A stretch of DNA of 64,000 bases from Gemmatimonadales bacterium (GTDB lineage: Bacteria > Gemmatimonadota > Gemmatimonadetes > Gemmatimonadales > GWC2-71-9), in assembly GCA_041615815.1 (NCBI GenBank), contig JBFJCP010000015.1, forward strand, positions 32,001-96,000. The letters are read 5' to 3'. How positions within the stretch are numbered: position 1 is the stretch's first letter; every line of letters starts with the position of its first letter. Position numbers and translations under genes: made by a program. Of the stretch, positions 3,539 to 29,124 are shown piece by piece. The notes beneath the pieces were generated by a model. It saw only the letters and a list, made by a program, of their open reading frames with translations. It did not search any database and was not told the origin of the DNA.

Positions 3539-3760
3539 TTATCCTTTGTAGCGGTAGGTGATACGGCCGCGGCTGAGATCGTAGGGCGAGAGAGCCACGG
3601 TGACCCGGTCACCGGCGAGCACGCGAATCCTGAAGCGGCGCATCTTCCCGGCGAGGGTACAGAGCACCGTATGCGAGTTCTCGAGCAGCACGCGGAACAT
3701 GGCGTTGGGCAGCACCTCGGTGACCGTGCCTTCCAGCTCGATCGCATCAGTTTTTGCCAT
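3539..3760 (-). CDS. infA: Translation initiation factor IF-1
   Basis: [24 protein letters not shown]...[33 protein letters not shown], 73 aa. Confidence 0.97.
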
Positions 3761-3771
3761 CGGGAGCCGTT

Positions 3772-3966
3772 CTAGGATCGGCGCTGGCGGAAGCGGCGAC
3801 GTCGACGTGCGGCAGCCTGCGCTTTCTTGCGCTTGGCCTCGCTGGGCTTCACGTAATAGCGCTTCTGCCTGAGGTCTTTGAGAATCCCCGAACGCTGCAC
3901 TTTGCGTCGAAAGGCCTTGATGGCCCATTCGACTCGATCGTCATCCCCGAGAATGATCTCGGTCAT
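3772..3966 (-). CDS. rpsU: 30S ribosomal protein bS21
   Basis: [58 protein letters not shown] upstream. Confidence 0.93.
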
Positions 3967-3998
3967 CGAAACTCCTTTCGTTCCACCAACTGGAATTG

Positions 3999-4033
3999 AA
4001 ACGGGGCCACCCCCATCGGAGTGGACCCCGTTT
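3999..4033 (-). terminator. Terminator/attenuator-like hairpin between csp and rpsU
   Basis: AAACGGGG-CCAC ... GTGG-A-CCCCGTTT stem; on the minus strand it ends in TTTCAATT (short U tract). Confidence 0.5.
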
Positions 4034-4062
4034 TGACTCAATCACGCAACAACAGAATGGAC

Positions 4063-4275
4063 TCAGTCGCCGACTGGGCTAACGTTCTGCGCCGCAGGTC
4101 CCTTCTGCCCCTGGACCACGTCGAACTCCACCTGCTGTCCCTCGCGGAGGGACTTGAAGCCCGTGCCGTTGATCGCCGAGTGATGGACGAATACGTCCTT
4201 CTCTCCGTTCTCGGGCGTGATGAAACCAAAGCCTTTTGCGTCGTTGAACCACTTCACGGTTCCTCGGGTACGCAT
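4063..4275 (-). CDS. csp: Cold-shock protein (CspA family)
   Basis: [15 protein letters not shown] (RNP1) and DVFVHHSAI (RNP2), 70 aa; GAGGAG RBS. Confidence 0.97.
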
Positions 4276-4398
4276 GCCGTACTCCTCTTGTTCTGTCGAT
4301 GTTCGTCGGAGTCCGGTCGTACCGTACTAGCCGAGCGTCCATCTTTTTCCGCGCGGCGCTGTCGCCCCCGCGCTGGGCTGCCGCGTTCGCGGCACGGA

Positions 4399-4434
4399 CA
4401 ACAAAAACGAGGACTGGCGTCCTGCCGGTCCTCG
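4399..4434 (-). terminator. Intrinsic terminator-like hairpin between the DEAD gene and csp
   Basis: Minus strand CGAGGACCGGC-AGGAC-GCCAGTCCTCG followed by TTTTTGTTG (11-bp stem, one mismatch). Confidence 0.6.
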
Positions 4435-4554
4435 AGCATGTCACTCGTATGGTCGCACCCCCCAGAGGGGCGCTTGTGACGCCAGCACAATGTAATGACT
4501 GGGCCCCTCCAGTGCCAGGGCAGACGGCCTGGAGCTCCGGGGGCCCTGCGCCCA

Positions 4555-5769
4555 CTACCGCCTCCGGGCCCTCCCCCGTCTGTGCCCCAGGGAAGGGCCG
4601 GTCGGCCGGGGCCGGGAAGCGCGTTCGTCGGGCTGGAGCGGCGTGACGGCGGGCTCGAAACCCGGCAGAATTTGCCGCTCAAACGTGCGACCCATCAGCT
4701 TCTCGACATCGCGCATCATGAGCCACTCATCGGGAGACATGAGCGTGAGAGCCAGCCCCTCCGCGCCCGCCCGAGCCGTACGCCCCACCCGATGCACGTA
4801 CACTTCCGGATCATTGGGGACGTCGAAGTTGACCACGAGAGCAATATCGTCGACGTCGATGCCGCGGGCCGCCACATCGGTGGCTACCAGGATCCGGGTT
4901 TTCCCCTCCCGGAATCGGTCGAGCGCCCGGTTGCGCAATATCTGGGTCTTGCCGCCGTGGAGCGCCATCACGTCGTTGCCCTCGCGGCGCAGGTGGTGGG
5001 CCAACTTCTCCGCCCCGAACTTGGTCCGGGTGAAGACCAGGGTCTTCGCGGCTGGGAGCTCAAGGAGCATTTTGGCGAGGACACGCCGCTTGGCCGCCTT
5101 GTCCACGGCCACCAGGATGTGCTCCACGCCGTCGGCCGCTTCGGCCCGCTTCCCGATCTCCACGGCCGCATGGCCGTTTAGCGCCCGCTGGGCCAGTCGG
5201 TCCACATCCCCCGAGATGGTGGCCGAGAAGAGCATCGTCTGGCGCTCAGCCGGCAACGAGTCGAGGATCCGATTGACGTCTCTCGCGAACCCCATGTCCA
5301 GCATCCGGTCCGCTTCATCGAGCACGAGCACTTCGAGGCGCGAGCTGTCTACGTGGCCACGACCCATGTGATCGAGCAGCCGACCCGGTGTCGCCACTAC
5401 GATATCGACGCCTCCCTTCAGCGCCCGCGTCTGCGGATGCATCGCCACCCCGCCGTACACGGCGACTGCCTGCATACGGCTGTGTCGGCCGTAGGCGCGG
5501 GCACTGTTCACCACCTGCTCGGCGAGCTCGCGCGTGGGCACGAGCACCAATGCCCTCAGTGTTCGTCGCTGCCCACCCTGCAACCGCTGCAGGATGGGAA
5601 GCAGGAAGGCAGCGGTCTTCCCAGTACCCGTTTGCGCCGAGCCCACCAGGTCGCGACCCTCCAATCCCAACGGAATGGCCTCCCGCTGAATGGGCGTGGG
5701 CTCGGTGTAACCCTCGTCTTCGACTGCCTGTAACAATTCGGGCGCAAGGCCCAGAGACGCAAAAGTCAT
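4555..5769 (-). CDS. DEAD-box ATP-dependent RNA helicase (RhlE-like)
   Basis: Q motif (PTPIQ), AQTGTGKT, PTRELA, TPGRL, DEAD, SAT, ARGID, HRVGRTAR; basic C-terminal tail. Confidence 0.96.
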   Translation of the reverse strand: MTFASLGLAPELLQAVEDEGYTEPTPIQREAIPLGLEGRDLVGSAQTGTGKTAAFLLPILQRLQGGQRRTLRALVLVPTRELAEQVVNSARAYGRHSRMQAVAVYGGVAMHPQTRALKGGVDIVVATPGRLLDHMGRGHVDSSRLEVLVLDEADRMLDMGFARDVNRILDSLPAERQTMLFSATISGDVDRLAQRALNGHAAVEIGKRAEAADGVEHILVAVDKAAKRRVLAKMLLELPAAKTLVFTRTKFGAEKLAHHLRREGNDVMALHGGKTQILRNRALDRFREGKTRILVATDVAARGIDVDDIALVVNFDVPNDPEVYVHRVGRTARAGAEGLALTLMSPDEWLMMRDVEKLMGRTFERQILPGFEPAVTPLQPDERASRPRPTGPSLGHRRGRARRR

Positions 5770-5852
5770 TTGTTCCGTACCAATCCTCGTACCGGTGTAC
5801 GCACGCATGCCGACGACGCTCCAGTCATCGGAGACACGTGCCGTTGTGAATG

Positions 5853-5970
5853 TGAACCTGAGGAGGTCAGCGACGAGACTCGACGCGCGTCGGTACCCCT
5901 GAGCCGGGGACCATTCTACAGGAGAGAAGATGCCAGCTCGCGGTTCTTCCTACAGCATGCAAGCTAACGG
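5853..5970 (-). promoter_or_regulatory. Conserved upstream/leader element, copy 1 (upstream of DEAD helicase)
   Basis: CCGTTAGCTTGCA...AAGAACCGC.GAGC.GG.ATCTTC...CCCC/GGGG hairpin...CTCCTCAGGTTCA; colinear with 27876-27993. Confidence 0.7.
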
Positions 5971-27837: not shown

Positions 27838-27875
27838 GCGCATCCTCCGGATGGTGGAATGATCCAACGACGGAC

Positions 27876-27993
27876 TGAACCGAGGAGTGCATCGCGGTGG
27901 GCGCAGCACCAGCGTTCGAGCCACCCCAAAAGGGGGCGGCGGCTGGGGAAGATACCGGCTCTGCGGTTCTTGTCGGCAGCTGCAAGCTAACGG
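27876..27993 (-). promoter_or_regulatory. Conserved upstream/leader element, copy 2 (upstream of desaturase)
   Basis: CCGTTAGCTTGCA...AAGAACCGCAGAGCCGGTATCTTC...CCCC/GGGG hairpin...CTCCTCGGTTCA; colinear with 5853-5970. Confidence 0.7.
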
Positions 27994-28021: not shown

Positions 28022-28050
28022 TTTTCAGAATGCCCTCAACCCGCTATAAT
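28022..28050 (+). promoter_or_regulatory. Sigma70-type promoter for the small-protein/HTH operon
   Basis: TTTTCA-17 bp-TATAAT (perfect -10 in GC-rich DNA). Confidence 0.65.
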
Positions 28051-28228: not shown

Positions 28229-28441
28229 ATGACGGAGATCCCCACGCGGTACTTCAGATTCAAAAAGAACCGCTGCCCCCGTTCGGTGAAATGGCTTGAC
28301 CGCGACGGGATTTATGAAGGCAAGTTGATGTCGATGACGAAACGGGTCGTTCGCCTGTATGCTCCGGAGGGAACACCCGACGACCCGCATGTCGATGTCT
28401 CCTACGATTGGCTCATTCCGGTGCAAGGAGGCCCGCATTGA
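28229..28441 (+). CDS. Small hypothetical protein, possibly an SH3/Sm-like beta-barrel
   Basis: 70 aa MTEIPTRYFRFKK...GIYEGKLMSMTKRVVRL...VDVSYDWLIPV; stop overlaps the next TTG. Confidence 0.65.
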   Translation: MTEIPTRYFRFKKNRCPRSVKWLDRDGIYEGKLMSMTKRVVRLYAPEGTPDDPHVDVSYDWLIPVQGGPH

Positions 28442-29124
28442 AGTTGTCACCCCCGCTGAAAAAGCCCGTGAAGGTGGGAGAACTGTTGCGTCGACGCTTG
28501 AAAGAGACCGAGCGCACGCCGGAGGAGTTGGCCGAGGCGGCGCAGGTACCACCGGAGTACATCGACGACCTGCTCGCCGGTCGGCGACGTCCTCCGCGTC
28601 CCGGACGTACGGATCTCTACCAGAAGATGACGGCCTTTCTCCGGCTCAGTCGGAACGATCTCGCGTTGTGCGCTCGGGCCGAGCGAGAGGAGAGCGCGCC
28701 GAAGCGGGCTGCCGGTCCCAAGCCCAAGGTCCGGCGCTTGCTGCTCGAGTTGTGCGAGCCGACGACGGCCGAGGAGCTCGAGCGCCGGCGAACCAAAGAC
28801 GGGGGGGCTGAATTCGTCGACCTCATCCAGCGCCTACTCGACGTGGCTCAGGGGGCGGTGCGCAAGGTGTTGGACGACCAAATCGGGCTCCGGATTGCGG
28901 CCGAGCGAAGCGGCGGGAGTTACGTCGCCGCCCGCTTCAGCGTCTTGGAGTTTCTGGACGCAACGCCGGACAGCCTCACGGTCGATCACCTCACACGGTT
29001 TCTGCGGCCTCGCGTGGCCATGTGGGACGTCGACTTGGAAACCGGCGTCCTGCGCGTCGTGCTGCGCGGTCAGGAGCCTCAAGATCGGTATCGACGCAAG
29101 CCAAGCCGCAAGGCGGCCTTCTAG
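28438..29124 (+). CDS. XRE-like HTH protein with an uncharacterised C-terminal domain
   Basis: GELLRRRLKETERTPEELAEAAQVPPEYIDDLLAGRRRPP; AGGAGG RBS with TTG start. Confidence 0.8.
   Translation: MKLSPPLKKPVKVGELLRRRLKETERTPEELAEAAQVPPEYIDDLLAGRRRPPRPGRTDLYQKMTAFLRLSRNDLALCARAEREESAPKRAAGPKPKVRRLLLELCEPTTAEELERRRTKDGGAEFVDLIQRLLDVAQGAVRKVLDDQIGLRIAAERSGGSYVAARFSVLEFLDATPDSLTVDHLTRFLRPRVAMWDVDLETGVLRVVLRGQEPQDRYRRKPSRKAAF

Follow-up and report, generated by a model that had tools for sequence, protein, structure and literature searches.

A 118-nt stretch of DNA that stands in two places in the genome of a Gemmatimonadales bacterium is the promoter and folded RNA leader of one RNA helicase gene, and it represents a real cis-regulatory RNA family, apparently undescribed so far. 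Sequence comparison shows that a ~90-nt part of the leader (domain 1) is conserved by covariation as a three-way junction in front of one clade of DEAD-box helicases. As judged from folding models, the leader probably switches translation of the helicase. The best explanation, to which modelling and analogy lead us to assign a probability of about one half, is a kinetic translational switch that would be open first, with the junction folded, then closed at the site of ribosome binding (RBS), and reset by warmth and/or the helicase. All coordinates refer to the window, i.e., the whole stretch of 64,000 nt that was analysed (contig JBFJCP010000015.1, positions 32,001 to 96,000).

Results

Two related but unequal copies in the window

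The initial annotation had described an element shared, with the same span and orientation, by two 118-nt stretches on the minus strand, 5853-5970 upstream of a DEAD-box helicase gene (PF00270/PF00271) and 27876-27993 upstream of a fatty-acid desaturase gene (PF00487). The similarity is real. Both copies align locally with a score of 89, compared to a mean of 44.5 (sd 5.6) in 20,000 random genome windows, and the sole random window reaching 89 was one overlapping the query (score 232). BLAST with the desaturase leader retrieves the helicase copy at E 0.0012, confined to the first 45 nt. Everything that the annotation quotes is there exactly as given, CTCCTC(A)GGTTCA and both CCCC/GGGG hairpins included. 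However, the copies are not equals: the helicase copy scores 71.8 bits against the family model R1 and is a typical member, whereas the desaturase copy stays at 15.4 bits (E 0.15), i.e., at chance level. Searching the 4.19-Mb genome with a two-sequence profile brought up no further copy. Rather than the many copies of a dispersed repeat, placed regardless of gene and orientation, there are two in this genome and mostly one per genome among relatives.

In all 89 leaders of the non-redundant set that could be assessed, a TAnnnT hexamer is found 6-20 nt before the GAACC motif, as opposed to 5.3% of windows drawn at random from the genome, a lenient control because these windows are mostly coding DNA; this supports the earlier reading of TAGCTT as a −10 box. 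GTTAGCTT has 15 occurrences in the window's genome, one of them before a cold-shock protein (csp) gene. Therefore, the 13-nt identical start of the two copies is promoter DNA, not RNA, and we infer that the RNA starts immediately upstream of GAACC. In front of these leaders, the −10 hexamers conform to YTA(G/C/T)(C/T)TT, not TATAAT, and this pattern is possibly the clade's usual promoter.

Table 1. Positions of leader, promoter, and gene features in the window.
Feature	Position	Strand	Remarks
−10 hexamer TAGCTT, helicase operon	5961..5966	−	DNA element; start site expected a few nt ahead of GAACC
Domain 1, conserved three-way-junction RNA	5854..5946	−	71.8 bits to R1; MFE fold of the isolated domain is the junction
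Domain 1, P1	5942-5946 with 5854-5858	−	GAACC with GGUUC
Domain 1, P2	5933-5939 with 5901-5907	−	GAGCUGG with CCGGCUC, closing inner hairpin 5910-5931
Domain 1, P3	near 5896-5899 with CC of 5860-5865	−	GG(GG) with CC, closing GACG/CGUC hairpin 5872-5891
CUCCUC strand	5860..5865	−	Pairs in P3 or alternatively with the RBS; pairing with GAGGA predicted at ~0.8 for the full leader
Domain 2, long irregular hairpin between junction and RBS	5801..5842	−	Structure conserved, sequence variable among leaders
Shine-Dalgarno-like GAGGA	5784..5788	−	14 nt before ATG at 5769; from sequence
RhlE-like DEAD-box RNA helicase, 404 aa	4555..5769	−	Short Arg-rich tail; Pfam DEAD and Helicase_C only
Cold-shock protein	4063..4275	−	Own, different leader at ~4306-4381
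Ribosomal protein S21 (rpsU)	3772..3966	−	TIGR00030 above cut-off
Translation initiation factor IF-1 (infA)	3539..3760	−	TIGR00008 above cut-off
−10 hexamer TAGCTT, desaturase gene	27984..27989	−	Same context as helicase copy
Derived domain 1 duplicate	27877..27969	−	15.4 and 16.3 bits; folding
Desaturase RBS GAGGA	27843..27847	−	From sequence
Fatty-acid desaturase, 396 aa	26647..27837	−	PF00487
Small divergent gene, 70 aa	28229..28441	+	Marks probable ancestral site of the leader-helicase(-desaturase) operon

The helicase finds its best NCBIfam model in RhlE (445 bits, under the cut-off of 743). Translation most likely starts with the ATG at position 5769 (M-T-F-A-S-L-G-L), in agreement with the starts of its orthologues. 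The spacing between Shine-Dalgarno sequence and start is 10-18 nt in most B-type leaders, which is unusually long (window 5770-5783 and relatives). Downstream of the helicase, the gene order in the window is csp, rpsU, infA. These genes accompany the helicase in shifting order: they follow it in the window (3539-5769, minus strand) and precede its leader in G001, csp-rpsU follows the helicase in G133, and infA is divergent in G067 (loci L318, L333, and L307 compared).

Domain 1 is a covarying three-way junction

In the consensus of domain 1, P1 pairs GAACC with GGUUC, P2 pairs RAGC(N)GG with CC(N)GCUY and closes a variable hairpin, and P3 pairs GG(A) with (U)CC and closes a second variable hairpin. 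The strongest covariation is located in P2. Its first pair is G-C in 111, A-U in 20, G-U in one, and mismatched in one of 133 parsed cores and has the highest mutual information of all pairs. On a tree of 102 helicase proteins, this pair changes its state eight times, one of these being the G-U row, which leaves ~7 independent switches between G-C and A-U. The adjacent GG/CC pairs (GG with the CC before GCUC) hold in 133/133 and 131/133 cores; as partners of CUGG, the 3′ CCAG and the YGG strand were both weaker and were rejected. In P3, G-C is compensated to A-U in 3/73 rows. P1 displays one-sided changes only, and its invariance is partly an artefact because the search pattern fixed P1 in part.

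Overall, covariation exceeds that of all 500 shuffles in the MAFFT alignment and the model-fitted alignment alike. Because related genomes are not independent, p-values here and below overstate the case. The number of two-sided pairs on the unfitted (MAFFT) alignment is not above the shuffles (5 vs. 3.9), and RNAalifold recovers P1 and two short helices from the gappy alignment, nothing more. The MFE z-score of domain 1 is only −1.1, and that of the domain 2 hairpin averages −2.0 over 45 leaders. Alignments and folding sets were assembled without the chance matches L093, L121, and L153 and without L021 and L185 (unpublished genome); the count of 133 cores additionally leaves aside L060, three indel cores, and two mis-anchored ones (L059, L141).

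Two of the hairpins proposed at the outset look different in the light of this consensus. The AAGA/UCUU hairpin is unconserved: the base before GAACC is C in 28/51 relatives and A in 12, and GAACC pairs with the terminal GGUUC. The CCCC/GGGG hairpin stands as a real competing fold: the same CC can pair with the GG of P3 in 131/133 cores.

The proposal of a structured 5′ leader belonging to no known RNA family is borne out. At the gathering threshold, no Rfam 15 family matches the window; the two copies draw only chance-level matches (10-16 bits), and in 18 relatives nothing overlaps the motif at E 10. The cspA thermoregulator RF01766 does not match the element even at E 10; its sub-threshold matches in the window's genome sit on csp genes. 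We found no published description of the leader family in the literature, where survey supplements and subscription papers could hold one. In the main texts of the motif surveys PMC11109978 and PMC8632094, neither Gemmatimonad nor DEAD is mentioned; their supplements could hold the motif.

The leader belongs to one helicase clade

The leader is present at each of 15 loci fetched for close helicase orthologues, which have 68-80% identity and of which one stems from an unpublished genome, compared to 0/14 more distant DEAD loci. Scanning the GTDB species genomes for the pattern gave at least 119 loci. Among the 119 matches listed, 113 directly precede an RhlE-like DEAD helicase, whose start lies roughly 50-170 nt downstream, three are the same motif at contig ends, and three are chance matches in other phyla. 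The helicase thus stands behind 113/116 family copies listed, the other three ending with their contigs. This location, in the predicted 5′UTR of the helicase gene with a −10 box upstream in 89/89 cases, is the one expected of a helicase-autoregulatory leader. According to the record titles, the matches stem from Gemmatimonadota, mostly Gemmatimonadales.

Strong R1 matches occur in 69/150 genomes of the window's family, exactly one copy in 67 of these 69, and in 15/31 genomes of one family of another order. R1 matched once, in diverged form, among 70 genomes of a further family, in 0/24 genomes of two sister families, and in none of 78 phylum-sample genomes outside the window's family and the other-order family at the strong level. 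The motif was found in 0/6 genomes of the other class of the phylum, and the two matches in viral contigs are both chance. Misses of R1 mean "not found" only, because the genomes are incomplete MAGs. The family tallies include unpublished genomes (G016; G016, G093, G158), of which the structural claims are independent.

Two unusual copies were observed. In G127, a second helicase-leader copy (L324:354-447, plus strand; 45.9 bits) precedes a YchF-like ATPase gene. In G508, a second leader copy (L359) is fused straight to the helicase coding sequence, without domain 2 and a normal start.

The initial annotation had proposed the element as a candidate leader of a cold regulon. This does not hold: the 113 of 116 family copies listed precede the helicase only, and the leader was not found before the five csp genes of the window's genome, which bear a different one. 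Because the csp genes use another leader, the element is not a cold-regulon element but a helicase leader occasionally recruited by other genes. The second, unrelated leader is conserved and pseudoknot-like and precedes four of the five csp genes (window 4306-4381, minus strand, and L002, L003, and L004). Its pattern, GCAnCCCnRCGCGGGGG..CCGCG..GUCGG..CCGGACUCCGA, lies shortly upstream of a csp gene in 16/17 exact matches, in 8/61 genomes; no Rfam family matches this leader at threshold.

Folding predictions and a proposed kinetic switch

As proposed earlier, CUCCUC can pair with the GAGGA RBS, and this is predicted for both window copies. In isolation, domain 1 forms P1 with a probability above 0.5 in 90/90 non-redundant leaders, a fold that is favoured because the ends were trimmed to P1. 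In full leaders, the mean P1 probability drops to 0.04-0.31. Opening the RBS region of the full leader is predicted to cost 10.9 kcal/mol, versus 8.7 kcal/mol without domain 1 and 9.2 kcal/mol with shuffled domain 1.

Temperature hardly alters these equilibria. In the helicase copy of the window, predicted RBS pairing remains at 0.76-0.80 from 5 to 45°C, which amounts to no equilibrium switch, and the family average of predicted RBS accessibility is flat between 10 and 50°C (0.24-0.26). As far as the helicase copy is concerned, the suggested thermosensor is therefore not supported in its simple form of an equilibrium thermometer.

The partners of the RBS region differ between subgroups. At 37°C, the invariant CC is predicted to pair with the RBS region at a probability above 0.5 in 16/41 leaders of B, the subgroup of the window's copy, and in 1/37 A and 0/12 C leaders. 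Complementarity between anti-RBS and RBS exceeds that of permuted combinations overall (p 0.004) but not significantly within subgroups (p 0.07, 0.30, and 0.43), and family-wide anti-RBS covariation was rejected on these within-subgroup values. Two other subgroups possess a CA-rich loop, which pairs with a GU tract immediately upstream of the RBS. Loop and tract are both present in 12/16 and 12/12 leaders; the cognate combination has an advantage in the first of these subgroups, A1 (p 0.003), and none in the second. P3 pair, anti-RBS strand, and RBS have changed jointly in L335, as read from the sequence.

A kinetic switch is favoured because anti-RBS covariation is non-significant within subgroups and equilibrium access to the RBS is flat with temperature. 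The junction would be transcribed first and fold at once, thereby locking away a pyrimidine strand (CUCCUC, or the CA-rich loop in the other subgroups) that could pair with or beside the RBS. Fresh mRNA with a folded junction would be translatable. The equilibrium fold predicted for the whole leader would break the junction and close the RBS region. In the cold, or when the helicase is scarce, the open form would persist, and warmth or active helicase would speed up refolding to the closed form. The outcome would be cold induction with negative feedback. The neighbouring genes, encoding csp, S21, IF-1, desaturase, and YchF, were counted in favour of this switch.

The desaturase copy as a probable remnant of a split operon

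The desaturase copy retains GAACC/GGUUC (extended to 6 bp), a re-formed GAGCC/GGCUC helix (27957-27961 with 27918-27922), and CUCCUC (27882-27887). Its centre has been swapped for a GCCGCCCC/GGGGUGGC hairpin, and the invariant GCUCAGG block and domain 2 are gone. Between 15 and 37°C, this copy is predicted to give up the junction in favour of RBS pairing. The size of the effect depends on the 5′ end that is assumed; with one such end, the probability of CUCCUC-RBS pairing climbs from 0.05 (15°C) to 0.64 (37°C).

A DNA search of 400 family genomes found no desaturase-type copy elsewhere; other matches were at most 44 nt long and at chance level. A subfamily of desaturase-type leaders was likewise rejected: R1, applied to 29 other desaturase loci of family genomes and to seven of 80 metagenome loci, gave two matches, both of them helicase leaders of operons. 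Of 88 motif loci with sufficient DNA downstream, four have the desaturase immediately after the helicase, the two genes sharing one leader; both genomes of the same genus are among them. In L321 (G082), DNA homologous to the region of the divergent 70-aa gene is located upstream of a leader-DEAD-desaturase arrangement, and in L307 (G067), such DNA is located upstream of leader-DEAD. Because this small gene also flanks leader-helicase-desaturase and leader-helicase in these genomes, the desaturase copy is probably at the ancestral locus. Such comparisons point to the split of an ancestral helicase-desaturase operon, in which the desaturase copy is probably the old operon leader, a worn duplicate left behind when the helicase moved with the intact one. 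That it still works as a simpler cold switch has slightly less than an even chance; it may instead be decaying.

In G326, a truncated 5′ half of the leader stands directly before a desaturase gene (L322:29-115, plus strand; identified by eye, no model match), and its AGGAUGGGAG block appears to serve as RBS. On the plus strand of the window, a consensus promoter TTTTCA-17-TATAAT (28022-28050) precedes the conserved 70-aa gene of unknown function (28229-28441), and an HTH gene (28408-29124) also lies behind this promoter.

Discussion

Alternative readings of the junction

The most serious competitor of the kinetic switch, though an unlikely one, is that the junction is an element of mRNA stability or termination, i.e., a 5′-end shield or a gate for RNase E or Rho, and that temperature or helicase would act via decay, not via RBS pairing. 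By its spacing, the junction begins ~0-14 nt from the expected start site, and an unpaired A-rich linker follows P1; the weak anti-RBS covariation fits as well. The available text on deaD describes autoregulation via stability and Rho (PMC7430678), and that on rhlE reports a 5′UTR which raises expression in transcriptional fusions (PMC5472812). Nevertheless, the RBS region is predicted to be closed more tightly by native than by shuffled domain 1, the long-range CA/GU pairing covaries in subgroup A1, and no intrinsic terminator was found in the leader. Less likely again, domain 1 could be the aptamer of a small-molecule or ion riboswitch with domain 2 and the RBS as its expression platform. 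As in riboswitches, a conserved aptamer-like domain with covariation and a putative expression platform are present; the gene context suggests no ligand. Size and three-way-junction shape would suit an aptamer, stabilization of the junction would open the RBS, and the invariant nucleotides at or beside the junction (24 invariant columns in 51 rows) exceed what pairing needs. This invariance, however, was partly selected by the pattern, and the near single-gene association without a metabolic theme, the narrow distribution, and the lack of Rfam similarity even at E 10 argue against a riboswitch.

Leaders of ribosomal protein genes mimic rRNA, and the conserved block might analogously mimic helix 90 of 23S rRNA and be bound by the helicase as a ribosome-assembly factor, a reading we consider improbable. 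In G094, CGCGAGCUGG and CGGCUCA match both helix-90 strands of the 23S rRNA, with the 10-nt block above 60/60 shuffles; one extra leader copy precedes the YchF-like ATPase, and the available text on DbpA places its action at H90/HP92 (PMC8536315). On the other side, the match is missing in two of the three rRNAs, 32-37% of shuffled cores also yield a match of 10 nt, leader and rRNA do not co-vary within one genome (G094, G102), the pairing register is unlike that of H90 in Rfam, model R2 finds nothing at H90, and the helicase has no DbpA RNA-binding domain by Pfam. Mimicry was thus rejected as unsupported on the three fetched rRNA operons, where the likeness does not go beyond chance. The least probable reading is that the element is a dispersed repeat or that a cold regulon shares it as a DNA operator or promoter module. 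The 13 nt with which both copies start identically are indeed promoter DNA, and the same −10 context occurs before a csp gene, but the operator offered as an alternative in the initial annotation is already largely refuted by compensatory changes over 45-90 nt, since two-sided covariation indicates RNA pairing. Fixed orientation, a single strong copy in 67/69 positive family genomes, and csp genes without the element speak against it as well.

Relation to known leaders

The E. coli cspA leader has a kinetically trapped cold form. Like the leader described here, this thermoregulator (RF01766) is a long structured leader of a cold-shock-type gene with alternative folds; unlike it, our element has no RF01766 match. 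[quoted passage not shown] In contrast to the one long hairpin of S. aureus, the open form here is a three-way junction, the gene encodes a DEAD helicase, and switching is only predicted (PMC8034633).

Among DEAD helicases, 5′UTR-dependent self-regulation is described for E. coli deaD (PMC7430678) and indicated for Caulobacter rhlE (PMC5472812), according to the available text of these papers. Both share a long 5′UTR with the present leader, and the 186 nt of rhlE are close to the 170-260 nt found here. Unlike our element, neither UTR is presented in that text as a compact conserved RNA family (PMC7430678, PMC5472812), and deaD acts via decay and Rho over 838 nt, which differs from our proposal (PMC7430678). 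A plant DEAD RNA element senses the activity of its own helicase (bioRxiv 10.64898/2026.01.23.701338, available part). It resembles our proposal as a conserved structure in a DEAD-helicase gene within a negative loop; being eukaryotic and controlling splicing, it serves as an analogy only.

Implications

Going beyond the kinetic switch itself, the leader might be a compact, conserved bacterial RNA that senses DEAD-box helicase activity (or cold-type folding conditions) as the helicase's own refolding substrate, and a portable module that has been duplicated and re-tuned on two occasions ahead of a membrane desaturase (in G000 and in G326) and once ahead of a YchF-like ribosome ATPase (G127). 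We regard this reading as possible but doubtful. Regulation of DEAD-box helicases is poorly known, and in the literature as accessible, the bacterial cases (deaD, rhlE) rest on long UTRs, not on a defined RNA family. For the ~90-nt element, more than 130 distinct variants from nature are available, together with a fold backed by covariation and the exact residues at which to make compensatory changes; therefore, helicase sensing, thermosensing, and ligand binding can be told apart directly by reporter assays. Moreover, the two copies in the window would show how a regulatory leader is duplicated and remodelled upon the split of an operon.
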